NCBI GenBank assembly: GCA_965219455.1
Contig: OZ244744.1
Span: 5,152,001-5,216,000 of the forward strand
Origin: Candidatus Latescibacterota bacterium
GTDB taxonomy: Bacteria; Latescibacterota; UBA2968; GCA-2709665
Length of the DNA stretch: 64,000 nt
Reading direction: 5' to 3'
The translations under genes were made by a program, and so were the position numbers. Shown piece by piece: positions 10,470-30,670 of this stretch (its first letter is position 1; every line of letters starts with the position of its first letter). The notes beneath the pieces are model-generated. The model did no database searches. It was not told where the DNA came from and worked only from the letters and a program-made list of their open reading frames with translations.

Positions 10470-10534
10470 AGGAGCGACTGGAACTCGAAGACGCCTGCTT
10501 GTGCGTTCTGATCACCTGCGCTTTTAACTACGAT

Positions 10535-13810: not shown

Positions 13811-13865
13811 ATAAGGAAATACGGATGTAATTTGGCTCTTTGAAACACTCGCAGGGGGAGCGCCA

Positions 13866-15617
13866 ATGCCGTGGACAAGCGAAAGCCTGTTGCAGCGCCT
13901 CAAACTAGGTGAGGACAGTCGCGTTGAGTTTAAGGAGGTCGTGTTTAGTGCCAACAAGGTCCGTGAGCCTCGCCGAAACACGGTTGCAGACGAGTTGGCA
14001 GCTTTCGCCAACACCAACGGCGGTACAGTAATTTTCAGCGTATCCGACGCTGGTGAGGTGCGGTCGATGAATCGACAACAGCTGGATACATTAGAAGCGT
14101 ACGTCGGTGAGATTTCCTCGGATAGCATCCGTCCTCCGTTGGCGTTCGTGACTCAACGGCTGGTTCTGGCGGACGGTTCTTATATACTGATCGTCGAAGT
14201 CGAACAGAGCGCGCTGGTTCACAAGAGTCCTGGGGGGTATTTTTCCAGAAAAGGCAGCGCTAAACGTGAACTGTCGTCGGAAGCGTTGAAACGTCTGTTC
14301 CAACAGCGTGGGCGTTCTGGCATACTTGGTCCTGACGAAGCGATCATTGCTGAAAGCGGACCAAACACGTTAGACGAGACGTTAGTTGATCGTTTTCTGA
14401 GCTCGCGCGCCACCGAGCCTGCAGTAGTCCAACTCGCAAAGCTGGGGTTGGTGCGGGAGGATGACAGCGGCGTGATCCGCGCAACTGTGGCCGGGGTGTT
14501 GCTTTGCACCGCACGTCCGGATGAGTACATACCAGGCGCCCTGGTGGAAGCAATTCGATATCGAGGCACGGTACTCGGCCGTGCGGGGCAGCACGATGCC
14601 GCGTCGATCACCGGTCCGTTGGACCGGCAAATTCGCGATACCGTAAACTTCGTAAGGCTCAACACGCGGGTGGCGGCGCGCAAGGATCCTGGGCGGGTTG
14701 AGATTCCCCAATTCAGCCAGAGAGCAGTATTCGAAGCCATTGTGAACGCGGTTGTACACCGCGACTACTCGATAGTGAACGGAAAAACAAGGCTTTTCAT
14801 CTTTGACGATCGCCTTGAGTTGTACTCACCAGGTGCCCTGCCAAACACTCTAACCATCCAGACCATGCGCAATCTACAAGCCACCCGAAATGAAACGCTC
14901 GCATCCATCCTCCGGCGGCTCGAAGTGGGCGATATCAAAGGCTCTGGTGATCGGCAGTACTTCCTGGAACTACGCGGCGAAGGGGTACCAATTATCTTTG
15001 AACAGACACGGGAACTTACAGGGCACGATCCGGATTACGAACTGATCGGGGGTGCGGAACTACGACTGACTATACCATCCGCCCCTGCGCCGGTAGCAGG
15101 GATCACAGGGGAAGTGTCGGTATTCGCGGGCGGCCAGCCGCTTACAGGTGCGCAGGTAGTTACGTTATATCCCAACAAGACCTGGATGGAGGGGAAAACC
15201 GATACGTTTGGCCGGGTCGCTTTTGGGTTCCACTCGGAACTCCCGATTACCGTATTTTGCGCTGCACCCGGATACAGCGCTCGCGTGGAGCGGGACTGGC
15301 GCCCGCCGGAGTCGCTGCAAGTGCAGCTTGAATCACTTTCGATGGGTGGCTCTGCCGTGTTCACGGAAGGAACTGGTCATTTGCCCAATCTAACCGGTCG
15401 ACTAAACCCTATACTGGACAATCTCGACCGCATGTACCTTTACGCGACAAACATCGCGATCGACGAAGGCATGCAGCAACCCGTTCATTTTAAGTTGAAT
15501 CAGTCCTTGCGTCTCACGGATGTTAATGGCTTTGAGTGGATCGTGCGGTTTGTTGAGATGATTGGTAAGTCGACTCTATTGGAATACGAACATCCCGAGT
15601 ACAAACCTGGATCGTAA
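13866..15617 (+). CDS. AlbA_2/Schlafen domain + HATPase_c_4 ATP-binding protein with extra C-terminal beta domain
   Basis: GEDSRVEFKE, AFANTNGG, EAIVNAVVHRDY, DRLELYSPG, RN..LASIL, RGEG. Confidence 0.85.
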   Translation: MPWTSESLLQRLKLGEDSRVEFKEVVFSANKVREPRRNTVADELAAFANTNGGTVIFSVSDAGEVRSMNRQQLDTLEAYVGEISSDSIRPPLAFVTQRLVLADGSYILIVEVEQSALVHKSPGGYFSRKGSAKRELSSEALKRLFQQRGRSGILGPDEAIIAESGPNTLDETLVDRFLSSRATEPAVVQLAKLGLVREDDSGVIRATVAGVLLCTARPDEYIPGALVEAIRYRGTVLGRAGQHDAASITGPLDRQIRDTVNFVRLNTRVAARKDPGRVEIPQFSQRAVFEAIVNAVVHRDYSIVNGKTRLFIFDDRLELYSPGALPNTLTIQTMRNLQATRNETLASILRRLEVGDIKGSGDRQYFLELRGEGVPIIFEQTRELTGHDPDYELIGGAELRLTIPSAPAPVAGITGEVSVFAGGQPLTGAQVVTLYPNKTWMEGKTDTFGRVAFGFHSELPITVFCAAPGYSARVERDWRPPESLQVQLESLSMGGSAVFTEGTGHLPNLTGRLNPILDNLDRMYLYATNIAIDEGMQQPVHFKLNQSLRLTDVNGFEWIVRFVEMIGKSTLLEYEHPEYKPGS

Positions 15618-15634
15618 CGAACTACGAGGAGAAG

Positions 15635-15790
15635 ATGAAGTTGAAAGTAATTGTCCATCAGGCGGAAGAAGGTGGTTATTGGGCAGAAGTACCCTCGATC
15701 CTTGGATGTGCGACGCAAGGTGAATCCTTTGAAGAGTTGCTGACCAACCTCTACGAGGCCGTTGAAGGTTGCCTGTCCGTTGACGTCTGA
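15635..15790 (+). CDS. HicB-like antitoxin (51 aa, not in ORF track)
   Basis: Translates as MKLKVIVHQAEEGGYWAEVPSILGCATQGESFEELLTNLYEAVEGCLSVDV; GAGGAG RBS. Confidence 0.8.
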   Translation: MKLKVIVHQAEEGGYWAEVPSILGCATQGESFEELLTNLYEAVEGCLSVDV

Positions 15791-15817
15791 CCTGTAACCA
15801 AACGAATTTGTGATACG

Positions 15818-16612
15818 ATGGAGAGACCGGAATCAATGAGGAAACGAAGATCGAGCAAAACCATCGAAACCCTCCAGCACAAGGACGCATCGCGAAAGAA
15901 TATCCCCACAGCTGAGTATCAGGCGGTGATGGCGGAAGGCGACCGGAATCCCATTAGGGTCGCGTATGAGCGGCGCAACCGGGAACTTGATCCACAGCTT
16001 GTCTGGCGGGGTAAGGACGAGCAGAACTGGGCGGGTCTGGTGGTGCAAGCGCCGCCGTTGTTCATACAGGACAAGGTCCAACCAAAGGTGCTCATCGACG
16101 ACTTGCGCCAGCGGAGTAAGGAGTCGGATACTAAAAATGGCGATTCCGAATCCCAAGCCGACCTCTTCGCGGATTTCAACGGGCTACCCAGCGCGGACGC
16201 CCAGACGGAGTTTTATCAACACGACGCCAACTGGTCGAATCGGATGATACTGGGGGACAGCTTGCAGGTCATGGCGTCGCTGGCGGAGCGGGAGGGGTTG
16301 CGTGGTAAGGTACAATGCATTTACATCGACCCACCCTACGGCATCAAGTTCAACTCCAACTTCCAGTGGTCAACGACAAGCCGCAACGTCAAGGACGGAA
16401 AGGCAGAACACATTACACGCGAGCCAGAGCAGGTAAAGGCGTTTCGGTATACATGGAGCGAAGGGATTCACTCGTATCTGACGAATCTCCGAGATCAGCT
16501 GACGGTGGTGCATTCCAACGAACTTTCCTTCAAGAAACGCGTACCTGATGGAACTGGTAAACCCTGCCGAATGCCATCAACCCGGACCCAGAGCGAGATG
16601 AGAAATCCATGA
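15818..16612 (+). pseudogene. Truncated 5' duplicate of the mod methyltransferase gene
   Basis: About 15811-16510 is colinear with 17280-17970 (includes IDPPY), then runs into unrelated sequence. It lacks the TRD and the SAM-binding motif. Confidence 0.85.
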
Positions 16613-17082
16613 AAGAGAAAGTCTATCTCGAAACGACTGTTATCAGCTATCTGACTGCTTGGCGAAGTCCACAACTCTTGATGGCTGCACATCAGGAAGC
16701 AACGAGAGTCTGGTGGGACGAACAGAAAAATAGATTCGACATCTTCACGTCAGAGGCAGTCATTGAGGAAGCGTCAGGAGGTGATCGGGAGGCCGTGCAA
16801 CGGCGACTTTCGGTGCTGGAGGGGATTCCTGAACTCGATGTCACCGATAACGTCCGCGATTTAGCCAAATCTCTACTTGCCAATACTCCATTGCCCGAAA
16901 GAGCCCAAATTGACGCACTGCACATCTCCGTGGCTACGGTTCATGGGATGGATTATTTGCTGACATGGAACTGCCGCCATATTGCCAATGCAACTTTCCG
17001 CCACCGAATTGATTCGGTTTGCGAATCCGCCGGGTACCAAGCTCCCGTTTTTTGTACCCCCCTCGAATTGATGGAGGAATAA
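16609..17082 (+). CDS. PIN-domain (VapC-like) nuclease/toxin
   Basis: VYLETTVISY, S..VIEEA, DALHISVA, DYLLTWNCRHIAN. Confidence 0.88.
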   Translation: MKEKVYLETTVISYLTAWRSPQLLMAAHQEATRVWWDEQKNRFDIFTSEAVIEEASGGDREAVQRRLSVLEGIPELDVTDNVRDLAKSLLANTPLPERAQIDALHISVATVHGMDYLLTWNCRHIANATFRHRIDSVCESAGYQAPVFCTPLELMEE

Positions 17083-17086
17083 GATC

Positions 17087-17263
17087 ATGCAACCAGATCC
17101 AATCGTCGAGGAAGTTCGTCGAATACGCGATGCGTACGCCAGGAGCTTCAACTATGACTTGGATGCGATCTGCAGTGATTTACAAGAGAAGCAGAAGCGG
17201 GGCAAGAGGAGAGTGGTTTCTTTGCCCCCCAAACGCCCGAGAAAAGTGGACGACAGTGGTTAG
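17087..17263 (+). CDS. Small protein downstream of PIN gene, probable antitoxin (58 aa, not in ORF track)
   Basis: MQPDPIVEEVRRIRDAYARSFNYDLDAICSDLQ...; GGAGG RBS; typical partner position. Confidence 0.7.
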   Translation: MQPDPIVEEVRRIRDAYARSFNYDLDAICSDLQEKQKRGKRRVVSLPPKRPRKVDDSG

Positions 17264-17286
17264 AGTATCCCGGAGGCGATGATACG

Positions 17287-20064
17287 ATGCCCAGAGTAAA
17301 ACGAAAACGCACCACCAAGACCGTCGAGAGTCTCCGCCACCAGGACGCATCGCGGAAGAATATCCCCACCGCAGAGTATCAGGCGGTGATGGCGGAAGAC
17401 GACCGTAGCCCGATCGGAGTCGCGTACGAGCGGCGCAACCGGGATCTGGACCCACAGCTTGTCTGGCGGGGGAAGGATGAGCAGAACTGGTCGGATCTGG
17501 TGGTGCAAGCGCCGCCGTTGTTCATACAGGAGAAGGTCCAACCAAAGGTGCTCATCGACGACTTGCGCCAGCGGAGTAAGGAGTCGGATACGAAAAATGG
17601 CGATTCCGAATCCCAAGCCGACCTCTTCGCGGATTTCAATGGGTTGCCGAGCGCGGACGCTCAGACGGAGTTTTACAAACACGATGCCAACTGGTCGAAC
17701 CGAATGATCCTCGGAGACAGCTTGCAGGTGATGGCGTCGCTGGGCGATCGGGAAGCGCTGCGAGGCAAGGTGCAGTGCATATACATCGATCCGCCGTATG
17801 GGATCAAATTCAACTCCAACTTCCAGTGGTCAACGACCAGCCGCGACGTAAAGGACGGAAAAGCAGAACACATTACACGCGAGCCGGAACAGGTGAAGGC
17901 CTTTAGGGATACGTGGCGTGACGGGATTCACTCGTATCTTACTTACCTGCGGGATCGGCTGGCCGTCGCGCGGGATTTATTGACGGAAAGCGGGTCGGTC
18001 TTTGTACAGATTGGCGACGAGAATATGCATCGAGTGCGGGCGTTGATGGACGAGGTGTTCGGGGAGGAGAATTTCGTTAGTTTGATTTCCTATTCGACGA
18101 CGACCGGCAGAACCTCTTCCTTCGTACCAAACGTGACCGATTACGTTCTCTGGTTTGCAATGAACTCAGAAATCGCGAAATACAGAACTTTATTTGGGGT
18201 TCCAAAACCAAAGGAACATCTGATTGTCGAAAGCGATGATTCGTACCAGCTTAGAGATTTGACGTCACAGGGCGCTGCCAGCAAGCCACAGCCTTTCGTC
18301 TTTCAGAATGAGATCTTTCATCCTTCCGCAGCTCGCCACTGGAGCAATGACCATTTGAACGGTATGCCTAGATTGGTTAGAGCTGGACGGATCGTCAAAG
18401 TTAGCGACACGCAGATTCGAGCAAAGATATTTGACAAGGAACGAGTGGCGACGCCACTTACTAATCGATGGCTGGACACTCAATTTGGTGCCTTCGCAAG
18501 GGATAAGATCTATGTCGTGCAGACTGCTACGAAGGTTGTCCAACGCTGCATACTAATGACCACGGACCCCGGCGATCTCGTTCTAGACCCCACCTGCGGT
18601 TCCGGAACCACTGCATATGTTGCCGAACAATGGGGCCGACGCTGGATCACCATCGACACCTCTCGCGTCGCTCTTGCGCTCGCCCGCGCCCGCATCATGG
18701 GCGCGCGCTACCCCTACTACCTGCTTGCCGACAGCAGAGAAGGGCAGATAAAGGAAGCCGCGCTCGCCCGCAAGGCCCCGTTGGAAGCGCCCACGTACAG
18801 CGACATCCGTCAGGGCTTCGTGTACGAGCGCGTCCCCCACATCACCCTCAAGTCCATCGCCAACAACGCCGAAATCGACGTAATCTGGGAGAAATTCCAA
18901 GAAACGCTGGAGCCGCTAAGGGAACAGTTGTCAGTGGTCAGTGGCCAGTGGTCAGGAGGCGACGAAGGGACACATGACACTGGCCGGCCATTGGAAGAGT
19001 GGGAAGTGCCGCGTGAGAAGCCGGAAGACTGGCCACCGGCCACTCAACCACTGCTCACTGAATTCTGGGAACAGCGCATCGCGAGACAAAGGGAAATCGA
19101 CGCGTCGATCGCTGCAAAGGCGGATTACGAGTATCTTTACGACAAGCCTTACGAGGACAAGAAAAAGGTCCGCGTCGCGGGTCCTTTCACGGTAGAGAGT
19201 CTGTCGCCGCACCGACTTCTTGGTGTCGATGAAGATGACGCATTGATTGATAATGTCGCAGAAGGAAAGCTTGGCTATAGCCCAAAGCAGGACTTCGCGG
19301 GGAAAATCCTTGAGAATCTAAAGACCTCCGGAGTACAACAGGCGCACAAGGAGGACCGAATATCCTTTTCCGGAATGAGACCCTGGCCCGGCAATCTCGT
19401 TTGCGCTGAGGGTTCTTACGTCGAAGGCGACTCGAGGTACGGCACCGAAAAACGCGCGGGTATCTTTGTCGGACCGGAATTCGGAACGGTGTCCCGTCCC
19501 GATCTCGTTGAGGCTGCTCGGGAGGCAGCTGATGCTGACTTCGACGTGCTGATCGCCTGCGCCTTCAATTATGACGCACACGCCTCTGACTTCAACAGCG
19601 TAGGCCGCGTCCCGATCCTGAAGGCCCGCATGAATGCTGACCTCCACATGGCGGAAGACTTAAAGAACACGGGACAAGGAAACCTCTTTGTTATTTTCGG
19701 CGAACCCGATATAGATATCCTTGAAGCGGAAGACGGACAGATTCAGGTAAGAGTAAACGGTGTCGATGTATTTCACCCCAATACCGGCGAGGTGCGTAGC
19801 GACAATGCCGACGGGATAGCCTGCTGGTTTGTCGACACTGACTACAACGAGGAGAGCTTCTTCGTTCGCCAGGCCTACTTCCTCGGCGCAAACAACCCCT
19901 ATGAATCCCTCAAGACCACCCTCAAAGCCGAAATCAATCAGGAAGCCTGGGAAACGCTACATAGCGACACATCCCGGCCTTTTCCCAAGCCGTCATCCGG
20001 ACGGATTGCGGTAAAGGTAATCAATCACCTTGGAGATGAGGTGATGAAGGTGTTTCGGGTATAG
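17287..20064 (+). CDS. Type III-like Mod, adenine-specific DNA methyltransferase (beta class)
   Basis: Catalytic IYIDPPYG, variable TRD, SAM-binding VLDPTCGSGTT, long C-terminal domain ending KVINHLGDEVMKV. Confidence 0.92.
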   Translation: MPRVKRKRTTKTVESLRHQDASRKNIPTAEYQAVMAEDDRSPIGVAYERRNRDLDPQLVWRGKDEQNWSDLVVQAPPLFIQEKVQPKVLIDDLRQRSKESDTKNGDSESQADLFADFNGLPSADAQTEFYKHDANWSNRMILGDSLQVMASLGDREALRGKVQCIYIDPPYGIKFNSNFQWSTTSRDVKDGKAEHITREPEQVKAFRDTWRDGIHSYLTYLRDRLAVARDLLTESGSVFVQIGDENMHRVRALMDEVFGEENFVSLISYSTTTGRTSSFVPNVTDYVLWFAMNSEIAKYRTLFGVPKPKEHLIVESDDSYQLRDLTSQGAASKPQPFVFQNEIFHPSAARHWSNDHLNGMPRLVRAGRIVKVSDTQIRAKIFDKERVATPLTNRWLDTQFGAFARDKIYVVQTATKVVQRCILMTTDPGDLVLDPTCGSGTTAYVAEQWGRRWITIDTSRVALALARARIMGARYPYYLLADSREGQIKEAALARKAPLEAPTYSDIRQGFVYERVPHITLKSIANNAEIDVIWEKFQETLEPLREQLSVVSGQWSGGDEGTHDTGRPLEEWEVPREKPEDWPPATQPLLTEFWEQRIARQREIDASIAAKADYEYLYDKPYEDKKKVRVAGPFTVESLSPHRLLGVDEDDALIDNVAEGKLGYSPKQDFAGKILENLKTSGVQQAHKEDRISFSGMRPWPGNLVCAEGSYVEGDSRYGTEKRAGIFVGPEFGTVSRPDLVEAAREAADADFDVLIACAFNYDAHASDFNSVGRVPILKARMNADLHMAEDLKNTGQGNLFVIFGEPDIDILEAEDGQIQVRVNGVDVFHPNTGEVRSDNADGIACWFVDTDYNEESFFVRQAYFLGANNPYESLKTTLKAEINQEAWETLHSDTSRPFPKPSSGRIAVKVINHLGDEVMKVFRV
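18925..19061. repeat. Heptamer tandem repeats (CAGTGGY)n and inverted complementary arm inside mod
   Basis: CAGTTGT CAGTGGT CAGTGGC CAGTGGT CAG at 18925-18955; ACTGGCC ACCGGCC ACTCAACC ACTGCTC ACTG at 19028-19061. Confidence 0.7.
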
Positions 20065-20073
20065 ACTATTAAC

Positions 20074-20149
20074 TGACAGGAACCGGCGAACACATGCATC
20101 GGGATTTCCGAGCGACCTGGTGCACTAGCCGCAAAGGGTTCATTTGTCA
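20074..20149 (+). ncRNA. Candidate structured RNA immediately upstream of the RT
   Basis: Nested pairings TGACA/TGTCA, GAACC/GGTTC, GGC/GCC, TGCA/TGCA and inner TCGG/CCGA hairpin. Confidence 0.4.
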
Positions 20150-20167
20150 CAAAACATAGCGCGACGG

Positions 20168-23155
20168 ATGCCGACAAGGGATGAACTCTACCTAGCCTAC
20201 AGACAAGCGAAAGTGGCGCTGTTTTTTGAGCGCCGTGGCGTTGGGCTAGTTGAATTAGCGCGTTTCGAGCGAAATTTGGGAAGAAGGCTTGACGAGTTGG
20301 CGTCGCGATTGGCGGACAACGGCGGCTGGTTCGATGGGCTGCCTGAGGGGGAAGTCTGGGTCGTGCCGAAGAAACTTAGGTTGAATGTTGACGACAACAT
20401 TGGCTACATTGGTGGTAAGCCGTCGAATAATACGATTAGAGGATTGGACGTTCAGATTCGCTACACGCCGAGCCCGGAGTGTGCGATTGTAGAGGTACTG
20501 TTTTTGTGGCAATTTGGCCCGATTCTTGAATCACTTCTATCTAAAAGTGCTCTCGGCTACCGGCTAGAACTTCAAAGCGGACGCATTAGTAAAACCCGTA
20601 GATGGCTGTTCGAATACTGGCCAAAGCGGTATGAAGAGTTCCGAACTATACCGATTGACGTTGCCACGCAAGAGATATCGAAGGGTCATTCGGTTGTTCT
20701 TCTCTGTGCGGACCTTACGAGCTTCTACGATACCGTGGACCCATCATTTCTTCTCAACGATGACTTTGTTGGCGAACTCGAAGAGTCCGTGTCTTCATCA
20801 TTGGAGAATTCGAACCTCCGAATTTCACAGTATCGCTCTGCTGCAGCCTCGCTTCTTCGATTCTATCGCAGGTTTCAACATCGTGCCGCACGCCGGACAG
20901 GTCTTAGTTGGACTACAGGTATTCCGATTGGTGCGCTTACGAGTCGCCTAGTGGCGAACCTGGCATTATCCAATCTAGACCAGTCCATTGAAAAGCGGCC
21001 GAACACGCGATGTTACAAGCGATACGTCGATGACTTAGCGATTCTCGCCCGTGTAGAAGGGGATCAGTCTCGTGATGTGGATCAGGTCATTCTCGATCAT
21101 ATACCCCATCTACATACCGAGAATTCAACGTTTCGTATCGATGAGAGTGCGATTAAGAGACCGGGTTCTGAATTTCGAATTCAAAGGGCAAAGTGTAAGG
21201 CGTACTACCTTTCTGATGTTTCAGGTAGTGATTTCCTCGCAAGTGTACGCAGGGATTTTGGACGCTTGGTAAGTGGCAGCCGCGCGTTCTTGGATCCGAC
21301 GATTTTTCACGAAAACGGACAACAAAGTCTACTTCACGTTGGACCGCCAGGGCGTCCTCTGACAGTCTTACGTGAAGCGGACCGGACTCGCCTCGAACAT
21401 TTCGAGCTTGCTACAAGGCTACGTTCACTAGAGCGAGCTACCATTCTTGCTGAGAGAGATAGTGCGAGTGGATTGGTAAAGCGGGCCTTGGATGAGACCA
21501 TTCGCTTCTTAAGTAGCGAAGTCGATTGGGTAGAGAATTTAGACGTGGCTCTTCGTATGTTAAGGTTAGGGATTCGTGCACGCGACTGGGAACACACAGA
21601 TGATCTGTATAGCTACATGGACGATATTTGGATTGATGTGGAGAAACTCCGAGGTGCAGCAGGAAGACTCTTCCATCGAGACAGGGAAATTACGTTGTCC
21701 AACAGTTGGGTGTGGCTTCGAAATTATCTACATACAATGAGAATCGAGGCGATATGCAGCGTCTTGTCGCCACATTATCCTGATTCGCCGCCAAGGTGGC
21801 TTCGCAGTGGCGTCTTGAATCGGACTCGAACCATTCAGTGGAGTACGCTACTCGCGCGGGCGAGGTTACTTGCGGCTGCCGACCTTAGAGCGTTTGATCG
21901 GGAGGACGACGCCTTTGACGACGCCTCCAACAATGTACGCTTGCAGAACGATGGCTTTGGCAACTACGATGCGGAACTCAGACAGCGCTTTAGTCTTGTC
22001 AACGAATTCGTTGAGATATGTCGACGGCTTGACGATAGGCCATGGATTATGTCACCAGTTCGTTTGTTTTTGTCTACTCGTCCGCCTTCGTACTTTGATG
22101 TAGCACGTCGTGTATTGTACCGGACCGAAGCTGGTCTGCGTTCTGAAGTATTCACCGAATTACTGGAAATGGTCAATGCGATTCGTGGCACTCAGTACTC
22201 CGATCCAGTTGGCGAGGTAATCGATGATTACACGGTCCATATACCCGGAAGGCTCGAATTAGGCGATGATGATTTCGCCAACCCGCAACTCATTTTGGGT
22301 AATCTGGTATTGTCGGAAGAATTCTTCACGCGAGCGGCGACTCGAAAGTCCGCGTCGAACACTGGTGATCCAGTACTGACAGTGGAGCGACTCCGGGACT
22401 TAACTGAGATTCTAGCCAAGAGTTACGAATTAGCACAACGCCATCAACCCTCTCCAAGCCTGCTTGTTCTACCAGAATTATCGCTTCCCCGTGCTTGGTT
22501 CCGCGAAGTTGCTACCCATGTCTCCAAGTATGGTAGCTTTGGTCTAATCGTCGGACTCGAATATCTACATCGTCCAAGTGATCGTTTAGTATTCAACCAG
22601 GTATACGCGGTTATACCTGGTCCATTTAAATCGACGGCTACTTGGCCTTGGACAAAGGAATTTCCCGCGAGAGAGGAATTTACGAAACTCAATGAACTAA
22701 ACGTCTCGTTCGAAAAAAGGGATAATCGCGAGTCACGACCCCGTACGGTCGTCGAAAGCCAGTACGGCAGCATTTCAGTATTGATTTGCAGTGAATTGAT
22801 TGAGGCGTACCGAATCTCTGATCTTGCAGGGCGGGTCGAAGTCGTCGCTGTACCTGCGTGGAACAAAGACACGTCATCCTACGACCACCTGATACAAACG
22901 GCGGGTTTGCAACTTAATGCAATCATTGGTGTCGCCAATAACGGACACTATTCCGATTGCAGAGCTTGGGCACCAAAACGAACTCGCTGGGAGAGAGATT
23001 TGTGCCGTCTTGTTGAACGGGACACAAACGCAGTTATTGCGGTCACTTTGCCATTGGAATCGCTTCGTGAATGGCGTTATTCTGCCCACTCTGGGGGATT
23101 GTCGGACGAGTCGGAGTGGCGACCACTCCCCCCAGATTGGCGACTCTTGTATTAG
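20168..23155 (+). CDS. Reverse transcriptase fused to C-terminal nitrilase (C-N hydrolase) domain; UG1/UG5/UG6 class, DRT1-like
   Basis: RT motifs ADLTSFYDTV, GIPIG, YKRYVDDL (YVDD at 21023-21034). Nitrilase triad VLPELS / WTKEFPA / LICSEL, plus VPAWN and ANNGHYSD. ATG 20168 preferred over TTG 20144. Confidence 0.9.
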   Translation: MPTRDELYLAYRQAKVALFFERRGVGLVELARFERNLGRRLDELASRLADNGGWFDGLPEGEVWVVPKKLRLNVDDNIGYIGGKPSNNTIRGLDVQIRYTPSPECAIVEVLFLWQFGPILESLLSKSALGYRLELQSGRISKTRRWLFEYWPKRYEEFRTIPIDVATQEISKGHSVVLLCADLTSFYDTVDPSFLLNDDFVGELEESVSSSLENSNLRISQYRSAAASLLRFYRRFQHRAARRTGLSWTTGIPIGALTSRLVANLALSNLDQSIEKRPNTRCYKRYVDDLAILARVEGDQSRDVDQVILDHIPHLHTENSTFRIDESAIKRPGSEFRIQRAKCKAYYLSDVSGSDFLASVRRDFGRLVSGSRAFLDPTIFHENGQQSLLHVGPPGRPLTVLREADRTRLEHFELATRLRSLERATILAERDSASGLVKRALDETIRFLSSEVDWVENLDVALRMLRLGIRARDWEHTDDLYSYMDDIWIDVEKLRGAAGRLFHRDREITLSNSWVWLRNYLHTMRIEAICSVLSPHYPDSPPRWLRSGVLNRTRTIQWSTLLARARLLAAADLRAFDREDDAFDDASNNVRLQNDGFGNYDAELRQRFSLVNEFVEICRRLDDRPWIMSPVRLFLSTRPPSYFDVARRVLYRTEAGLRSEVFTELLEMVNAIRGTQYSDPVGEVIDDYTVHIPGRLELGDDDFANPQLILGNLVLSEEFFTRAATRKSASNTGDPVLTVERLRDLTEILAKSYELAQRHQPSPSLLVLPELSLPRAWFREVATHVSKYGSFGLIVGLEYLHRPSDRLVFNQVYAVIPGPFKSTATWPWTKEFPAREEFTKLNELNVSFEKRDNRESRPRTVVESQYGSISVLICSELIEAYRISDLAGRVEVVAVPAWNKDTSSYDHLIQTAGLQLNAIIGVANNGHYSDCRAWAPKRTRWERDLCRLVERDTNAVIAVTLPLESLREWRYSAHSGGLSDESEWRPLPPDWRLLY

Positions 23156-23525
23156 GCGTGAGTCAGTGACTGCACGATGGCGACCACCCAGATCTTCGTC
23201 TATCATTTGGCGGGTGTGTATCGCACGTGCGGCTCGACGTCAGTTATTGATTCTCGGTCGCGATAAATGTCGCCGACTGTGAAAACAACTGGATGGGCGG
23301 GCCCCTAATACCGAACCGCGGACTTCCATTGAGTATGTGTGACAGCGGCACCATCATGACTAGATGGTGTCGGCCGAATCGTGCGCGACGTGTATGCCGG
23401 CCCTCGACGAATACAGTAGCGCTTGATTCGCTATCGTGTTACTTGTCATTGTATCAAAGGCCAAGTGGATCCGAACGCCGAAGTTGAAAGCACATTAGCT
23501 GAAAAAGCAAGTGTCGAGACTTGAG

Positions 23526-25595
23526 ATGGAATTCCGAATAGCAGACACATTTACCGACAGCCTCGCAAGCCTGACGGGAAACGAACAAAAGGCCGTGAAG
23601 ACCACGGCCTTTGATTTGCAGATGAATCCGGCCCAGCCTGGATTGAAATTCCACAGGGTTGACAGAGCCAAAGACCCGAACTTCTGGTCCGTTCGCGTCA
23701 ATCGGGACGTTCGAATCATTGTGCATCGGACACCCAAGAGTCTGATGATGTGCTACGTGGATCACCACGACAACGCTTACAAGTGGGCCGAAAAGCGTAA
23801 ATTGGAAGTCCATCCAAGAACCGGAGCAGCGCAATTGGTCGAAGTAAAGGAGACGGTCAAGGAAGTTGTCGTACCGGTGTATGTGGAAGCGGCACAGAAA
23901 CCCCCGGTCAAGCCGCTCCTGTTCGCCGAGACCCCGGAAGAAGATCTCTTGCGGTATGGTGTCCCTCCGGAATGGCTTGATGACGTACGTAACGCGAATG
24001 AAGACAGTCTGTTAGACCTTTCTGAACATCTGCCCGACGAAGCGACCGAGGCGCTGTTACAGATCGCCGTTGGGGAAACGCCGAAGCCCGTTGCGCCGGT
24101 GGTAACCGGAGATCCTTTTGAACACCCAGACGCAAAGCGGCGCTTCCACGCGATTTCAAACGAGGATGAGCTCGAGGTTGCGCTCGACTTTCCGTGGGCG
24201 AAATGGGCGGTTTTTCTGCATCCGACGCAGCGGAAGATTGTGGAGCGTGACTACAACGGTCCCTTCAGGGTCTCCGGACCCGCTGGCACAGGCAAGACCG
24301 TTGTTGCGATTCACAGGGCTGTTAACCTGGCACGCAACAATCCGGACGCTCGGATTCTGCTCACGACTTTCTCGGACACGTTGGCGGATTTTCTCCGTTC
24401 GCGAGTGACGCGGCTGATTCGCAATGAACCGCGACTCATGGAGCGCCTGGAAGTCGCCGCGATTCATCAAGTCTGCGAGCGACTCTACAAGGCGCAGTTT
24501 GGTGTCGCAGAAATTGCGACAATGGAGGTCGTTCGAAAGTTCCTCGCTGCACAAACAAAAAAAAAGGAGTCGTATCGATTTTCTGTCCCGTTCCTGATGG
24601 ACGAGTGGGAGAACGTCGTTGACGCATGGCAGTTGGATAGCTGGGAGGCCTATCGCGATGTCAGACGACTCGGGCGAAAGCCGCGTCTGCCCATCGAGCA
24701 ACGATCGAGGCTGTGGGGTATATTTGAGGGTGTCAAGGGCGAGTTGAAGAAAAAGGGGATAATCACCCGGTCAGCCATGTGTGGCAAACTGGCAGATGGA
24801 CTCACCGAGCGTCGCCATCCACCGTATGATTTCATTGTCGTGGATGAGGCTCAGGAAATCGGCGTCACCCAACTTCGTCTTCTGGCAGCAATGGGTGGCC
24901 AAAGGCCGAATGGCCTCTTCTTCGCAGGCGACCTCGGGCAACGGATTTTTCAGGCGCCGTTTTCCTGGAAGGCAGCTGGGGTCGATATCCGTGGGAGATC
25001 CGAGACACTAACGTTGAATTATAGAACGTCCCATCAGATCAGGATGCAGGCGGATCGACTCCTGGGATCGGAAGTCGCCGACGTGGACGGTAACGTCGAC
25101 GATCGCCGGGGGACGGTCTCGGCGTTTAATGGCGAACCACCTGAAATAACCTTGTTCGATAATGTGCAGCAGGAGGGTCAGGCCGTCGGAGATTGGCTGA
25201 AAGCGTTGGAGGACAAGGGGATCGATGCCGGTGAGATGGGCGTATTTGTTCGATCAGCCGCGGAACTGGACCGAGCGCGTGAGGCCGTACGGGAATCGGG
25301 ATATTCGTTCCAGATTCTGGATGAATGCAGTGAGTTGGCCGCCGGTCAGGTGTCGGTTGCGACGATGCATCTTGCCAAGGGGCTGGAGTTTCGAGCCGTT
25401 GCCGTCATGGCGTGTGACGATGAAGTGATACCACGACAGGAGCGCATTGAAACCGTCGCGGATGACGCGGACCTTGAGGAAGTCTACAACACGGAGAGAC
25501 ACCTGCTGTATGTTGCGTGCACACGCGCCCGTGACTACCTGATGGTTTCCGGCGTCAAGCCCGCTTCCGAATTCCTCGATGACCTGGGAGAATAA
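23526..25595 (+). CDS. UvrD/SF1 helicase with N-terminal RelE/ParE-like domain
   Basis: SGPAGTGKT, VDEAQE, AGDLGQRIF, LNYRT, TMHLAKGLEF, LLYVACTRA; N-terminal WSVRVNRDVRII...VDHHD. Confidence 0.88.
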   Translation: MEFRIADTFTDSLASLTGNEQKAVKTTAFDLQMNPAQPGLKFHRVDRAKDPNFWSVRVNRDVRIIVHRTPKSLMMCYVDHHDNAYKWAEKRKLEVHPRTGAAQLVEVKETVKEVVVPVYVEAAQKPPVKPLLFAETPEEDLLRYGVPPEWLDDVRNANEDSLLDLSEHLPDEATEALLQIAVGETPKPVAPVVTGDPFEHPDAKRRFHAISNEDELEVALDFPWAKWAVFLHPTQRKIVERDYNGPFRVSGPAGTGKTVVAIHRAVNLARNNPDARILLTTFSDTLADFLRSRVTRLIRNEPRLMERLEVAAIHQVCERLYKAQFGVAEIATMEVVRKFLAAQTKKKESYRFSVPFLMDEWENVVDAWQLDSWEAYRDVRRLGRKPRLPIEQRSRLWGIFEGVKGELKKKGIITRSAMCGKLADGLTERRHPPYDFIVVDEAQEIGVTQLRLLAAMGGQRPNGLFFAGDLGQRIFQAPFSWKAAGVDIRGRSETLTLNYRTSHQIRMQADRLLGSEVADVDGNVDDRRGTVSAFNGEPPEITLFDNVQQEGQAVGDWLKALEDKGIDAGEMGVFVRSAAELDRAREAVRESGYSFQILDECSELAAGQVSVATMHLAKGLEFRAVAVMACDDEVIPRQERIETVADDADLEEVYNTERHLLYVACTRARDYLMVSGVKPASEFLDDLGE

Positions 25596-25707
25596 CCTCG
25601 GCAAAGGGTAAATTGTCTCGTTAAATTAGGCACAGAGGGGTAGAAGGTCTCGAACGTGAGGTGGAGATGGCAGAAAAAAGATCTGGTCTTCCGTATGTAT
25701 GGGTGAC
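25374..25707 (+). repeat. Direct repeat C, copy 1 (helicase 3' end + spacer + first codons of nuclease gene)
   Basis: Near-identical to 27690-28022; the nuclease start here breaks off after ...LPYVWVT. Confidence 0.9.
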
Positions 25708-25846
25708 CCCTACGTGCCAATATAGAGTGAGACAACTCTCCATCCGAGTTTATCGCATATTGGAAGGTGGAGATGCGAACGTGAAATGAGGTTTCGAAGG
25801 ATCAACTAGCTGATTAGGCGAGACGAATCCTGGAGGTGGAAAGTTA

Positions 25847-27544
25847 ATGAACTTTAACACGACCAATAACACATTTCGCCAATTAATGGGCAACGGGCTG
25901 AGCTATCGCGTGCCGAAGTTTCAACGCGACTACTCCTTGGGTCTCGACGAATGGGACGACCTGTGGCAGGACATTGTTGCACTGTTCGGCGAGGACCCGG
26001 AACCCGCTCACTACATGGGCTATCTGGTACTGCAATCGTCGGACAACAGGTCATTTGACATTATCGACGGACAGCAGCGAATGACCACGCTTAGCTTGAT
26101 GATGCTGGCGGCGGTAGCGCATCTGGCGGACCTGGCGCCGCCGGGTGATCCGAATGACCCACAAAATCGACGCGCTGAGCAGTTGCGTAGCAACTACATC
26201 GGCTACCTGGACCCAGTCAGCCTGGTGTCGCGCTCAAAGCTAACGCTTAATCGGCATAACGATCGCTTTTACCAGAATTTCCTGGTACCCCTGGAACGTC
26301 TGCCGCAACGGGGCTTAAACGCCTCGGAACATCTGCTGCGTCGTGCTTTCATCTGGTTCAAGGAGCATATCAAGGAACGATCAGGCAATGACGGTGAATC
26401 CGTAGCGCGTTTTGTTGACGTCGCTGTAGATAAGCTGTTCTTTACGATCATTACCGTGACTGACGAACTAAATGCCTTTAAGGTGTTCGAGACTCTAAAC
26501 GCCCGCGGCGTGCGCTTGTCCGCTACCGATTTGCTCAAGAATTACTTGTTTTCGGTTGTCTCACGCGGAAATCCGCACGAATCTGAGATTAGCAACTTGG
26601 AAGATCGGTGGGAGGCCATTGTAGGGTTGCTGGGCAGTGAGAGTTTTCCCGAGTTCTTGCGGGTGTTCTGGAACAGCCGCAACAGGTTGGTGCGAAAGGC
26701 GGACTTGTTCAAGGTCATTCGGAACGCGATCTGCAATAGGTCCAAAGCGTTTGAATTGATCCGCGACATGGACAGGAGTGCCCGCATGTATGCGGCCTTG
26801 CGGAGCCCGGAGGACGACTCCTGGACACCAGACGAACACGCCAGCCTGGTCCAGTTACAGATGTTCAACGTGCGTCAGCCGTTGGCATTACTATTGGCGG
26901 CATGGGAGCGATTCTCGGAAGACGACCGTGTCGGCTTTGGACGACTTCTACAGGCGGTAGCGGTAGTATCATTTCGATACAACGTGATTTGTAGCCGCCA
27001 AAGCAACGAGCAGGAGGTCGTCTACAACCAGATTGCCCGGGGAATCTCGGTGGGCCGTGTAAACAGCACGGCCGCAGCGATTGCGGAACTTCGGCCTGTC
27101 TATCCCGATGATCCGGAATTCAGGTCGGCGTTTGCTGACAAGGCGCTGCGAACGACCAGTAGTCGTAACAATAAGGTCGTGCGCTTTATGCTGTTCCGGC
27201 TGGAAGCGCAGTTGTCGGGACAACGCTTTGAATATGAGAGCGCGAGACACGGCATCGAACATGTGCTGCCGGAGAATCCCAACGATGACTGGGAGCAGTT
27301 TGACGACCAGCAGCGAGAGGCGTCCACCTACCGTCTCGGAAACATGACCCTGATGGCGACCGCTGACAATCGCAATTTGGGAAACGCGGGATTCGACGAA
27401 AAACGACCGGTCTATCATAAGAGTAACTTCGCCATCACCCGCAGGCTAGCAGAAGACTACGACGCTTGGACCGTAGAGAAAATTCGCACACGCCAGGCTT
27501 GGATGGCGAAACAGGCTACGGGTATTTGGCGGGTCAATCTATAA
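25847..27544 (+). CDS. DUF262-DUF1524 protein (GmrSD-like type IV restriction / SspE-like)
   Basis: VPKFQRDY, IIDGQQRMTT, FETLNARG, IEHVLPEN...LGNMTL (HNH-like). Confidence 0.9.
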   Translation: MNFNTTNNTFRQLMGNGLSYRVPKFQRDYSLGLDEWDDLWQDIVALFGEDPEPAHYMGYLVLQSSDNRSFDIIDGQQRMTTLSLMMLAAVAHLADLAPPGDPNDPQNRRAEQLRSNYIGYLDPVSLVSRSKLTLNRHNDRFYQNFLVPLERLPQRGLNASEHLLRRAFIWFKEHIKERSGNDGESVARFVDVAVDKLFFTIITVTDELNAFKVFETLNARGVRLSATDLLKNYLFSVVSRGNPHESEISNLEDRWEAIVGLLGSESFPEFLRVFWNSRNRLVRKADLFKVIRNAICNRSKAFELIRDMDRSARMYAALRSPEDDSWTPDEHASLVQLQMFNVRQPLALLLAAWERFSEDDRVGFGRLLQAVAVVSFRYNVICSRQSNEQEVVYNQIARGISVGRVNSTAAAIAELRPVYPDDPEFRSAFADKALRTTSSRNNKVVRFMLFRLEAQLSGQRFEYESARHGIEHVLPENPNDDWEQFDDQQREASTYRLGNMTLMATADNRNLGNAGFDEKRPVYHKSNFAITRRLAEDYDAWTVEKIRTRQAWMAKQATGIWRVNL

Positions 27545-27689
27545 GATAAAATGGGGTTTAACGCCTTTGCGCATTGAACATCAGACAACACGTGACAATT
27601 CCACTGAAAATCTCACGGTCGCCCACTACCGATGATCCGCCGAGCACAACCAAGAATACGAATTTCATGTGGTCGCGGATCTCGTGGAC

Positions 27690-28022
27690 GCCAAGGGGCT
27701 GGAGTTTAGAGCCGTTGCCGTCATGGCCTGCGACGACGAAGTTATCCCGCGGCAGGAGCGCATTGAAACCGTCGCGGATGACGCGGACCTTGAGGAGGTC
27801 TACAACACGGAGAGACACTTGCTGTATGTTGCGTGCACACGCGCCCGTGACCATCTGATGGTTTCCGGCGTCAAGCCCGCTTCCGAATTTCTGGATGACC
27901 TCGGAGCGTAAACTCGCCAGGGGGAAATTGTCTCGTTAAATTAGGCACAGAGGGGTAGAAGGTCTCGAACGTGAGGTGGAGATGGCCGAAATGAGATCTG
28001 GTCTTCCGTATGTATGGGTGAC
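27690..28022 (+). repeat. Direct repeat C, copy 2; includes orphan helicase C-terminal fragment (to 27911)
   Basis: AKGLEFRAVAVMACDD...SEFLDDLG is duplicated from the helicase end. Confidence 0.9.
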
Positions 28023-28638
28023 GTGGTTAACGAAGTTGCTAACTGGAGAAACGTCATGTGAGTGGGCAAACTGGTTTCAAGCCCATCATGACAGCAGGAC
28101 GTGGACTGCTTTGCCGGGTGATTTTGATTCTACGGCATGGCAACTCAATCACACGGCAGCCACCAATGCATATCGGCAAAAGCTGGAAGATCTAGGATTT
28201 GACCTGTCAACCGAGACTCAGAATCGTTTCCACCTTAAAGGAAAGACGGCGACGGTTGGGGGAAAGCCCGATTTAATTGCAAAGAAGGGAAATCGCGGCA
28301 TAATCGTAGATATCAAAACGGGTCAACCAAGGACATCAGATCACGTTCAGGTAATGCTTTACATGTATGCAGTTCCCAGAGCGTTTCCTGAAAAATACAG
28401 AGATGTTGTCTTTGAGGGGCGGGTTGTTTACGGAGAGCAGGAGGTCCCTGTCCCGTCATCGGCTGTTGACGATAAGTTCGTCGAGCGATTTTCGGAGTTA
28501 ATACGCAGGCTGGCATCGAATGAACCGGCCAGAAGAGTTCCAAGTTATGGGGAATGTGGGTTTTGCAAAATTCCCGTGAGCGAATGCCCCGATCGTGTGG
28601 AGGAAGACACATCTACTGCAGCAGTTGATGATTTTTGA
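27982..28638 (+). CDS. PD-(D/E)XK nuclease, Cas4/AddB-like with four Cys
   Basis: GKPDL..IVDIKTG..QVMLY; Cys in TSCEW and CGFCKIPVSEC. Confidence 0.8.
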   Translation: MAEMRSGLPYVWVTWLTKLLTGETSCEWANWFQAHHDSRTWTALPGDFDSTAWQLNHTAATNAYRQKLEDLGFDLSTETQNRFHLKGKTATVGGKPDLIAKKGNRGIIVDIKTGQPRTSDHVQVMLYMYAVPRAFPEKYRDVVFEGRVVYGEQEVPVPSSAVDDKFVERFSELIRRLASNEPARRVPSYGECGFCKIPVSECPDRVEEDTSTAAVDDF

Positions 28639-28685
28639 CGTGGGAAAAACGTCCCGTCAGTTTCAATTTATATACACCAACGGTT

Positions 28686-28719
28686 AAAGAGGGAGCCGAT
28701 GGATTCTCGGACTCCCTCT
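28686..28719 (-). terminator. Terminator hairpin downstream of tRNA
   Basis: AGAGGGAGCCGA / TCGGACTCCCTCT stem with AAA on the plus side. Confidence 0.55.
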
Positions 28720-28728
28720 CTGGTGTTC

Positions 28729-28805
28729 TGGTGGGCCCTGCAGGACTCGAACCTGCGACCAACGGATTATGAGTCCGCCGCTCTAACCAACTGAGCTAAG
28801 GGCCC
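28729..28805 (-). tRNA. tRNA with CAT anticodon, most likely tRNA-Ile2 (lysidine-modified)
   Basis: GGGCCCTTAGCTCAGTTGGTTAGAGCGGCGGACTCATAATCCGTTGGTCGCAGGTTCGAGTCCTGCAGGGCCCACCA: cloverleaf, encoded CCA, resembles ileX-type. Confidence 0.93.
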
Positions 28806-28855
28806 GGTAACAGAGAAATTTACGCGATCTGCCGGAAAGGACAAGCTTTTTGTGG

Positions 28856-30670
28856 TCAACGCGGCTGCGTTTCGGTTGTTCCGCGCTGGACGGCGAACAG
28901 CGCTTTGCGTTGTCGGGTCAGATCTTTGTGTTCGGCCATCAACGCCATCGGATCCGTTCCGCCGCCGGCCGTGCGAAGTTGTGCCTCCAGGGCGTCGATA
29001 CGCGCGTCCAGAGCTTTGAGCTGCATTCTGGCGAGATAATCCTGCAGCGGGATCTGCGCCTCCGGGTTGAGAATGCCGATTTCCATTGATACCGCGGATA
29101 TGATGTTGGCCATTCCGGCGTCCTCGCATTGATTCAGCAGGGAAGCGGCGGCCGTGGTCCGCCCCTCCTCTCGCGCCGCCGCGATCATCCCCGCGATCCG
29201 CCGGTACACACTGTTGGTAAAGTGACCGCCGTCAATCTGTGCAAGCACCGTTTCGGCCGTGCGATCGTCCGCCATCATCATCGTGATCAGTTCCCGTTCC
29301 ATTCGAGGGCGGGGATCGAAAGACGCGGACCCGGATTCTGTCTCTGCCGCGTCGGCCGTCCGTCTGCCCGTACCAAAACGTGCCGCACGCTGGACCGCCT
29401 GGATGGCGATGGCTTCGTCGACCCCCAGTTTCTCCGCGATTTCCTGAGTCAGAAAACGCCTTAGGGTACTGTCCTTCGCGCGTGCGACGAACTCCGAAAT
29501 GGTTTCAACGGCACGGGTCTTGCCGTCCGACGTGGACAGGTCCTCCCGCGACCGCACCCAATCGAAGAGAAAATCCATTATTGGCGCGGCGGTTTCGGTC
29601 AGTTCGTTAAAGGCGTCCGAACCCCGCTGTCGGACGAAGCTGTCCGGATCCTCATCGCCGTCGAGCGTGACCACGCGAATTTCCAGCCCGAATTCCACCA
29701 GGGCGCCTACACCGCGCACGGTGGCGGCGGTACCCGCCGCGTCGCCGTCGAATACAAGTACGGCCAGGTCGGTAAACCGCTTGAGCAGGCGCGCATGTTC
29801 CGGAGTGAGCGCGGTTCCGGAAGAGGCGACAACGTTGCGGATATCGAATTGAGCCAGTGCAACGAGGTCCATATACCCTTCGACGACAACCGCCGTCCGG
29901 GTCGAACGGATCGGGTCCCGGTTGTTCCAGAGGCCGTAAAGCGTGGCGCTCTTGTTGTAGATTGGGGTCTCGGGAGAATTCAGGTATTTGGGCTGTTGCT
30001 CCGGATCGAGGGCGCGGGCGCCGAAAGCGACGGTCCGACCTGTGTGCGATTCGATGGGAAAGATCACGCGGTCGCGAAAGCGGTCGTAGTATCGGCCGTC
30101 CCCGCGGTGGGTGACGAGCCCGGCCCGTTCAAGCATCTGTGCGCTGAAGCCGCGCCTTCCAGCCACGTTGAACAGGCCATCCCAGGCTTTGGTGGCGTAT
30201 CCCAGCGAGAAGGCGTCCATCGTGGATTCTGAGACGCCGCGGCCAACGAGGTATTCGCGCGCTGCTGCGCCCGATTCGTGTCGCAGCAGCATGTGACGGA
30301 AGTATTTTCGGGCGAATTCGACCGTCCTGTAAACCTCGTCGTTGGTGTCCTGTGCCGCCTTGTCGCGGGGCTGAAATTCGGGCAGCGAAATGCCGGCCTG
30401 GTCAGCAAGCTTTCGTACGGCTTCGATGAAGCTGATGCGTTCGAGTTCCATCAGGAATATGAAGGCATTTCCGCCCGCGCCGCAGGAAAAACACTTGTAA
30501 ATCTGTTTCTCCTGGGAGACGTTCAGAGAGGGCGTCCGGTCGTCGTGAAAGGGACAGAGCCCCAGATAGCTCTTGCCACGTTTGACGAGTGCGACATACT
30601 CGGAAATGACGTCGACGATATCCAAGGAGTCGCGAATCTGTTCCACTGTATCTTCGGGAATACGGGGCAT
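28856..30670 (-). CDS. dnaG: DNA primase
   Basis: CPFHDDRTPS..CFSC zinc finger, KYLNSPET, EGYMD, FDGDAAG. Confidence 0.97.
   Translation of the reverse strand: MPRIPEDTVEQIRDSLDIVDVISEYVALVKRGKSYLGLCPFHDDRTPSLNVSQEKQIYKCFSCGAGGNAFIFLMELERISFIEAVRKLADQAGISLPEFQPRDKAAQDTNDEVYRTVEFARKYFRHMLLRHESGAAAREYLVGRGVSESTMDAFSLGYATKAWDGLFNVAGRRGFSAQMLERAGLVTHRGDGRYYDRFRDRVIFPIESHTGRTVAFGARALDPEQQPKYLNSPETPIYNKSATLYGLWNNRDPIRSTRTAVVVEGYMDLVALAQFDIRNVVASSGTALTPEHARLLKRFTDLAVLVFDGDAAGTAATVRGVGALVEFGLEIRVVTLDGDEDPDSFVRQRGSDAFNELTETAAPIMDFLFDWVRSREDLSTSDGKTRAVETISEFVARAKDSTLRRFLTQEIAEKLGVDEAIAIQAVQRAARFGTGRRTADAAETESGSASFDPRPRMERELITMMMADDRTAETVLAQIDGGHFTNSVYRRIAGMIAAAREEGRTTAAASLLNQCEDAGMANIISAVSMEIGILNPEAQIPLQDYLARMQLKALDARIDALEAQLRTAGGGTDPMALMAEHKDLTRQRKALFAVQRGTTETQPR

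Follow-up and report, generated by a model that had tools for sequence, protein, structure and literature searches.

The RT-nitrilase gene and its domains

The window analysed here is a 64,000-nucleotide stretch of contig OZ244744.1 from a Candidatus Latescibacterota bacterium, and the subject of this work is a gene within it that encodes a fusion of a reverse transcriptase (RT) and a nitrilase. This UG5-large RT-nitrilase gene is located at 20168..23155 on the plus strand and encodes 995 amino acid residues (aa) followed by a stop codon, as delimited by the list of open reading frames (ORFs), the translation, PADLOC and the ratio of nonsynonymous to synonymous substitution rates (dN/dS). The upstream end of the same ORF is an in-frame TTG at 20144 (20144..23155, +). 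The ATG at 20168 is the likely start because homologues begin at the same 'PT..DLYLAYRQAK', and the coordinates given in the original prediction, which was made from the letters of the window, are therefore exact. As that prediction had described, the gene lies between a Type III-like mod gene of 925 aa (17287-20064), upstream, and a UvrD-type helicase gene (23511/23526-25595), downstream. We consider it likely that this one gene forms a complete anti-phage module of the UG5-large/DRT11 type, acquired horizontally as a cassette and independent of mod and the helicase. UG5 belongs to class 3 of the UG/Abi RTs (Mestre 2022, PMC9226505), and DRT11 is a partner-less UG5-large protein of 1005 aa from Sinorhizobium meliloti that guards against podovirus-like phages (Sanchez-Nieto 2026, PMC13436386).

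The RT domain, comprising fingers, palm and thumb, covers residues ~1-372 (20168..21283, +), as located by Pfam RVT_1 at residues 171-299 (E 2.3e-7, 31.2 bits, cut-off 29.6) and by alignment of the family profile with the structure 9yfd_A. It contains the RT motifs ADLTSFYD at residues 181-188 (20708-20731, +; D182, F186 and Y187), GIPIG at residues 251-255 (20918-20932, +) and YVDD at residues 286-289 (21023-21034, +), the last being an intact catalytic YxDD. A helical middle follows at residues ~403-673 (21374..22186, +), assigned with DSSP on the AlphaFold2 (AF2) model, and is the counterpart of the alpha-helical repeat domain of DRT1. The C-N hydrolase (nitrilase) domain occupies residues ~705-995 (22280..23155, +) according to PADLOC RTasNitrilase and Foldseek. 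Its catalytic residues are E770 (22475-22477), K830 (22655-22657), C874 (22787-22789) and E876 (22793-22795), all on the plus strand.

Conservation was read from an alignment of 51 homologues that are 47-65% identical to the window protein. D182, Y187, G251, P253, I254, G255 and Y286-D289 are invariant in 51/51 sequences, and so are the nitrilase residues E770, K830, C874 and E876. The RT motif residues and the nitrilase catalytic residues are also invariant in 38/38 sequences that span both clades of the family described below. Intact D..FY, GIPIG and YVDD motifs and a complete E-K-C triad (E770, K830, C874) had been reported from the sequence by the original prediction, and both stand. Between the window gene and its copy at locus L001, in a genome of the same genus, dN/dS was 0.17 at a dS of 0.14, indicating purifying selection. 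The gene is thus intact, with conserved catalytic residues, and under purifying selection.

The base composition of the gene differs from that of its surroundings. Its GC content is 0.501, and 0.484 at third codon positions (GC3), versus 0.551/0.648 (GC/GC3) for mod, 0.560/0.623 for the helicase and a GC of 0.574 for the window outside the island in which these genes lie. The gene is AT-richer than its neighbours, as had been noticed.

Family assignment and phylogeny

As listed by PADLOC, the best model for the window protein is RT_UG5-nitrilase (PDLC03780), with an E value of 3.7e-114 and 381 bits; it covers residues 3-992 and profile positions 22-891 of 907, collinearly. The next-best PADLOC RT models reach at most 59 bits. 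Drt1a scores 54.5 bits only and is confined to the RT part (residues 155-354), RTasNitrilase matches residues 749-989 (E 7.4e-28), and RT_UG5_small matches the RT part (E 7.1e-17). In NCBIfam no family reached its cut-off, the top one being Drt3a with 38.8 bits against a cut-off of 200. A single-sequence phmmer search of the PDB gave no match for the window protein. A profile built from the 51 sequences found the cryo-EM structure of DRT1, 9yfd_A, as the best PDB entry (E 1.5e-11), with matches in both the RT and the nitrilase parts, and aligned the RT of 9yfd_A at 152-316. The PADLOC scores and this profile search, taken with the single sequence that finds nothing, indicate that the window protein is UG5-large and not DRT1. 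An identity with DRT1/UG1 was ruled out, as the Drt1a score is low and the protein has 995 aa where 1200-1300 aa are expected. The features of UG5-large are present: an RT with YxDD, a fused Glu-Lys-Cys hydrolase, a size of ~1000 aa, an extension between RT and hydrolase, and the best full-length match to the UG5 profile. The original prediction had assigned the protein to the defence-type RT-nitrilases of the UG1/UG5/UG6 group and suggested that PADLOC be run; the assignment holds, on the UG5-nitrilase side rather than that of Drt1a. The tight clustering with DRT1 that it had named as a reason to deny novelty was not found. At the family level, the equivalent does hold for UG5-large/DRT11.

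The window protein is ~26% identical to DRT11 by tblastn; in BLASTP the identity was 30% for the nitrilase and 25% for residues 1-485. On the RT_UG5-nitrilase model, DRT11 scores 1016 bits and a UG5-large homologue encoded on an E. coli plasmid 1034, and scores of 370-414 were obtained for the window protein and three related sequences. A FastTree phylogeny was built from 80 full-length rows. Besides the window protein, DRT11 and the E. coli plasmid homologue, it included 77 proteins with lengths of 900-1120 aa, one from the word-indexed search and the others from the representative library described below. This tree was midpoint-rooted only, its sample was biased to the kin of the query, and it contains no UG1 or UG6 sequences. 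One of its two clades, with 21 rows, contains both DRT11 and the E. coli homologue; the other, with 57-59 rows, contains the window protein. A long branch separates the two, and the split has a support of 100. The window protein, a distant and divergent member by its identities and scores, thus falls in this tree into a large clade that is sister to that of DRT11. Members of this sister clade were found in Acidobacteriota, Myxococcota, Burkholderiales, Xanthomonadales and Latescibacterota-like genomes.

A word-indexed search gave 283 proteins at E≤0.001 among 8000 candidates scored. The best 120 of the 283 are nearly all full-length at ~1000 aa, with 46-65% identity where full-length, and include a few fragments of 623-821 aa; the named sources in this search include Sorangium, Minicystis, Hydrogenophaga and Stenotrophomonas. 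In a representative library, the number of matching proteins was 1389 with a limit of E≤0.001, 853 with ≤1e-10 and 306 with ≤1e-30, and the 306 representative clusters are mostly full-length with the same architecture. The family is large, already catalogued and detectable by PADLOC, and its partner-less form has been validated experimentally in DRT11.

Structure models

An AF2 model was computed from the 51-homologue alignment. It had a mean predicted local distance difference test score (pLDDT) of 87.4 and a predicted template modelling score (pTM) of 0.90, and consists of an RT fold, a helical middle and an alpha/beta C-terminal domain. DSSP on this model assigned helices at 403-427, 430-450, 458-470, 474-488, 512-530, 558-570, 602-620 and 661-673, and the long helical middle region of the original prediction is borne out by residues 403-673, which are mostly helical. 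Foldseek searches of a PDB set that extends to April 2026, without 9YFD, returned nitrilase-superfamily amidases, best shown by 5nz5 (E 2.3e-8, TM-score by target 0.64), together with Nit2/Nit3, Lnt and RTs such as G2L4 and DRT9. Foldseek confirms the nitrilase fold predicted for the C-terminal domain.

Besides the known catalytic residues, a serine and the C-terminal tail stand out. Ser369 (21272..21274, +) is part of a motif of the S-E-x-R type, which reads S-G-S-R in the window, and by its conservation and its position in the AF2 model is a candidate priming residue. It is invariant in 51/51 homologues and also in 38/38 sequences over both clades, including DRT11 and the E. coli plasmid homologue. 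The pLDDT of the model falls across residues 361-400, and Ser369 is located at the end of the thumb helix, before the low-confidence loop. The C-terminal tail R-P-L-P-P-D-W at residues 985-991 (23120..23140, +) is, judging by its conservation and by the homodimer model, a likely inter-subunit lid of the nitrilase. L987, P988, P989 and W991 are invariant in 51/51 homologues, and in the 38-sequence set the two clades both retain the tail pattern [WFY][KR]P[LVI]P..[WFY].

A homodimer model of residues 700-995 passed its test with a score of 0.45, the best control being 0.00; that mark was reached by 20/30 solved one-chain pairs and by 1/23 single chains. The runs share at least 93% of their contacts, and the pLDDT of the partner was at least 87. 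In the model, the tail at 985-992 of one copy contacts residues 831-836 and 875-884 of the other copy, beside K830, C874 and E876. The pass may reflect only likeness, as nitrilase dimers have been solved many times over.

Genes beside the RT-nitrilase

Ten related RT loci were taken from genome contigs for a comparison of neighbourhoods. In tblastn searches with the window neighbours, mod and the helicase accompanied the RT gene in one of the ten only, L001, which belongs to a same-genus genome labelled Candidatus Latescibacterota (G001) and has an RT 94.8% identical to that of the window. When the flank ORFs of the window and the ten loci were compared all against all by blastp, no neighbour family common to distant loci emerged, the matches being three sporadic pairwise ones. 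The RT-nitrilase is single-copy in its own genome and was found in one of 40 relatives, G001. The helicase was sought in 21 of the 40 relatives and is full-length or nearly so in nine, of which only G001 has the RT.

The RT-nitrilase could be one part of a multi-gene system with the helicase or the Type III-like restriction-modification (RM) genes and unable to defend alone, a proposal to which the adjacency of mod, the RT gene and the helicase on the same strand and the recurrence of that order in L001 lend some colour. One UG5-large system, that of E. coli E101, does require a second gene, its transmembrane (TM) protein gene (Mestre 2022, PMC9226505). The helicase matches PADLOC RTasHel ('RT-associated helicase') with an E value of 1.2e-23 but fits generic UvrD models better, namely C3a187 (E 2.4e-30) and GajB (E 2.2e-26). 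In L001, three other ORFs (2.5 kb) intervene between the RT gene and the helicase. Mod and the helicase are missing from 9/10 related RT loci, and the helicase is full-length in eight relatives without the RT, where the gap beside it holds unrelated defence cassettes. The RT cassette is also 93.9% identical to L001, versus 78-83% for its neighbours. We regard such a multi-gene system as very unlikely. The helicase was rejected as a partner on its absence from nine of the ten RT loci and its presence in RT-less relatives, and the same counts speak against a role of the RT-nitrilase as backup to the RM system, as the original prediction had imagined it. Within the single-gene module favoured here, the RT-nitrilase would in all likelihood act independently of mod and the helicase.

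No membrane ORF was found beside the RT gene in the window or in the ten loci by a Kyte-Doolittle scan of ORFs of at least 50 aa within ~3 kb, a scan that had no valid positive control. In the window, hydropathic segments were present only in antisense ORFs inside other genes. The intended TM control, a 156-aa ORF after the E. coli plasmid homologue, showed no segment above the threshold, so that either this ORF is not a TM partner or the threshold is strict. With that limit, the earlier remark that a membrane partner is not evident agrees with our scan. In the survey of the group, a TM protein gene is located downstream of UG5-large in 31/299 members and 268 are without it (Mestre 2022, PMC9226505). 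Its absence does not set the window gene apart as a variant, the feature being optional in UG5-large. The original prediction had called the gene a variant and the best candidate in the window for an uncharacterised system. The full-length match to UG5-nitrilase, the scarcity of the TM gene among UG5-large members and the tested partner-less DRT11 argue otherwise.

The cassette slot and the surrounding island

A comparison with L001 by blastn delimited the exchanged cassette at 19856..23223 (+). It starts within mod, of which it takes in the final 209 bp, continues through a 103-bp spacer and the RT-nitrilase gene, stops 68 bp beyond that gene, and is 93.9% identical to L001 in one blastn segment; the identity is 78-83% in the flanking mod and 77.6% in the helicase.

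The stretch upstream of the helicase was examined in four relatives (G013, G029, G009 and G003). In G013 the gap between mod and the helicase holds a transglycosylase-like gene, a 154-aa ORF and GmrSD. In G029 (locus L028), a relative from the same taxonomic order, it holds IetA and IetS (2063-5631, minus strand), the AAA ATPase (E 4.5e-75) and the subtilase (E 4.2e-38) of the Iet defence pair. The gap of G009 contains a trio of ORFs of 263, 280 and 149 aa together with a Schlafen-like gene and a fragment of the 3' part of mod, and in G003, which has no mod match, a Type I specificity subunit, a DDE transposase and a 297-aa ORF are placed between a Schlafen-like gene and the helicase. These varied contents indicate that mod and the helicase frame a slot in which defence cassettes are exchanged, the RT-nitrilase being one such cassette. 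Its horizontal acquisition as a cassette into this variable slot is probable, as a component of the overall explanation. A cassette that carries the 3' end of a neighbouring gene would fit homologous recombination at gene-end repeats in the island.

The trio of ORFs has no Pfam or PADLOC match and is present at L001:11233-13243 and at L027 (G009) 2331-4341, minus strand. It stands beside the RT in G001 and occurs without the RT in G009, and is a candidate defence cassette of the mod-helicase slot.

The island extends over 8389-28022, between a serpin gene (6838-8232) and tRNA-Met (28729-28805) followed by dnaG (28856-30670). The serpin gene, at the left edge, is on the minus strand and encodes 464 aa (Pfam Serpin, E 1.2e-116). 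Several pairs of direct repeats were found. The repeats 8389-8503 and 10535-10649 (115 bp, 75%) flank the AAA_21 and DUF4276 genes, the repeats 15856-16501 and 17316-17961 (646 bp, 87%, the 5' part of mod) flank a PIN gene, and the repeats 25374-25707 and 27690-28022 (334 bp, 93%, the 3' end of the helicase) flank GmrSD. The 3' end of mod also recurs, at 8520-8653 and 19930-20064. Such repeats of pieces of neighbouring genes would fit a model in which cassettes enter as circles bearing part of the neighbour gene and integrate through a single crossover.

At 8431-10469, an AAA_21 ATPase gene (444-aa ORF), whose 5' end overlaps a mod 3' remnant, is followed by that of a DUF4276 protein, and the pair looks like a defence system. 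The N-terminal piece of mod is duplicated in a 264-aa ORF at 15818-16612, which corresponds to positions 74-253 of the PADLOC MTase_III profile and is located upstream of the PIN-domain gene (16609-17082); the full 925-aa mod comes after that. The matching endonuclease (BPTD_3080 family, 10733-13810) is parted from mod by a Schlafen/AlbA_2 gene. The UvrD-type helicase has ~235 N-terminal residues without a Pfam match, and comparison with L001 makes the ATG at 23526 its probable start. Many relatives have this helicase, and its last ~80-100 codons remain as remnants in G002, G006 and G012 and at 27690-27926 of the window.

The RT gene is thus located among restriction, PIN, GmrSD, AAA_21 and Cas4-like genes and next to a tRNA gene, and Pfam and Rfam scans found no endonuclease, integrase or intron RNA alongside it. 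This context bears on a further explanation, namely that the gene is a passenger without a role in defence, whether as what is left of a retroelement, selfish or in decay, or as a nitrilase of metabolism that became joined to an RT accidentally. The bacterium is uncultured and has no known phage, the one search for sequencing runs listed none of RNA, and the nitrilase has no assigned substrate across the whole family, which leaves such a passenger some room. An intact frame, invariant catalytic residues, a dN/dS of 0.17, the 306 representative clusters of mostly the same architecture and the company of defence genes all point the other way. The passenger is very unlikely, and the least probable of the explanations weighed here.

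Flanking RNA

Rfam searches at E≤1 over 15000-29000 found only the tRNA-Met at 28729-28805, where a plastid family also matched but stayed below threshold. When the flanks of nine loci were aligned (223 nt upstream, 390 nt downstream), nothing was conserved beyond close pairs; columns were on average 40% identical, and only 3 and 4 of them were invariant. No Rfam family was found there. The 103-nt upstream spacer folds like its shuffles (z -0.77). The downstream spacer of ~370 nt folds somewhat better than shuffles (z -1.90, with 1/100 shuffles equal), and is common to L001 for 68 bp only, which are kept there at ~94%. Promoter-like and terminator-like sites occurred at shuffle frequency in our scans.

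These results bear on the idea that the RT copies a non-coding RNA (ncRNA) encoded in its flanks, as the RTs of retrons, DRT2 and DRT9 do, with the cDNA as effector or sensor. Spacers that could hold one are available on both sides, and the downstream one has the fold and the short conserved segment just described. The missing conservation, the shuffle-level upstream fold and site counts and the example of DRT11, for which no flanking ncRNA was detected by RNA-seq and a 179-bp upstream deletion was tolerated (PMC13436386), make a copied ncRNA highly improbable. The flank analyses give a template RNA no support, and a local RNA may exist given the downstream fold. The suggestion of the original prediction that the system uses flanking RNA fares no better, as no flank is conserved or matched by Rfam and the tested relatives make DNA without a template (PMC13275509).

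Proposed mechanism

Tested relatives provide the model for the single-gene module. In DRT11, defence was abolished by the RT mutation DD296-297AA or by the nitrilase mutation C876A, and protection depended on the multiplicity of infection (MOI), being present at low and absent at high MOI (PMC13436386). DRT1 synthesises semirandom, template-free DNA primed on Ser402, a residue in an unresolved loop after the RT (Neville 2026, PMC13275509). In the same study, the DNA adducts drive the formation of tetramers and filaments via the nitrilase domains. The site of the nitrilase is covered by C-termini swapped between subunits, which together with the adducts keep the enzyme closed, and the T4 Dda helicase is required for activation. 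Purified DRT5S and DRT5L likewise make protein-linked DNA without a template (PMC13275509). We read DRT5L as UG5-large, a term that is absent from the text of that source. About 18% of drt1 genes have drt1b (PMC13275509).

By analogy with these relatives, the following steps can be proposed for the window protein, in which the making of DNA, the residue that primes it, the control through oligomers, the trigger and the action on a substrate are all inferred. The RT would make short DNA of undefined sequence, without a template and primed on a residue of its own, for which Ser369 is the best candidate. The covalent DNA adduct would drive assembly via the nitrilase domains and hold the nitrilase poised but closed, with the conserved C-terminal tail of one subunit presumably covering the active site of the next. 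A component of phage replication would then release the block, and the E770-K830-C874 hydrolase would destroy or make a small molecule, halting the infected cell (abortive infection). The invariance of Ser369, the conservation of the tail and the homodimer model fit such a DRT1-like mechanism without proving it.

Several points weigh against the single-gene module or against its proposed mechanism. Pfam gave no CN_hydrolase match in the window protein at E≤0.01. Ser402 is reported not to be conserved in other class 3 DRTs (PMC13275509), which makes Ser369 only a guess, and E. coli E101 shows that some members are not self-sufficient. The lack of a known phage for the host and the fold of the downstream spacer belong here too. 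The transfer of the mechanism is an analogy because the window protein is distant from every tested member. A single-gene module of the UG5-large/DRT11 type nevertheless remains the explanation that we favour.

Going further, the protein may represent a large, mostly metagenomic sister clade that could differ in trigger or substrate, in which Ser369 and the tail would be the priming residue and swapped nitrilase lid of UG5 and the cassette would move with the 3' end of its neighbour. This extended proposal is possible but doubtful.

The discovery value of the gene is limited, since the family is catalogued, the partner-less form is validated and both structure and mechanism have been worked out for the sister family DRT1. 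The gene is of use as material: a divergent member from an uncultured lineage, with the same island scaffold with and without the cassette as a clean natural comparison. Ser369 and the C-terminal tail, invariant across UG5, are starting points from which the priming site and the lid of the nitrilase might be mapped in this group.

Comparison with known systems

DRT11 is encoded on pSymA of S. meliloti RMO17 (L011:1501-4518). Like the window protein it is a single polypeptide of ~1000 aa (995 versus 1005) with a collinear RT, helical linker and nitrilase, it has YVDD and the K-C-E(+E) residues, and PADLOC ranks the same model first for both. A membrane partner and a detectable flanking RNA are missing from either locus, and both are located in a variable defence region. 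In contrast, the window protein is only ~26% identical to it, scores 381 versus 1016 bits on the UG5 model and belongs to the other major clade, and the host phylum differs, the relative of the window being labelled Candidatus Latescibacterota. Phage defence dependent on both active sites has been demonstrated for DRT11, whereas the window protein is known from its sequence alone.

DRT1 (UG1, PDB 9YFD) is the closest solved structure by profile search and resembles the window protein in the order of its domains and in having a conserved tail at the C-terminus. The mechanism of the window protein is likely to be modelled on it, with protein-primed, template-free DNA and an oligomer-controlled nitrilase, to the extent that the analogy holds. 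It has 1229 residues versus 995, and the Drt1a profile fits only the RT part of the window protein. The filament, the trigger and the adduct were demonstrated in DRT1, whereas the UG5 clade of the window has so far been seen only as sequences. Ser369 is an invariant serine before a low-confidence loop; any equivalence with Ser402 of DRT1 would be a guess, given that Ser402 is reported not to be conserved in other class 3 DRTs.

The E. coli E101 system, UG5-large with a TM gene, is of the same group and has the same fusion. It differs in requiring the downstream gene, whereas no TM ORF was found beside the window gene in our scan. UG5-small and UG6 are related lineages with an RT and a nitrilase, in which the nitrilase is a separate gene, whereas in the window protein it is fused to the RT.

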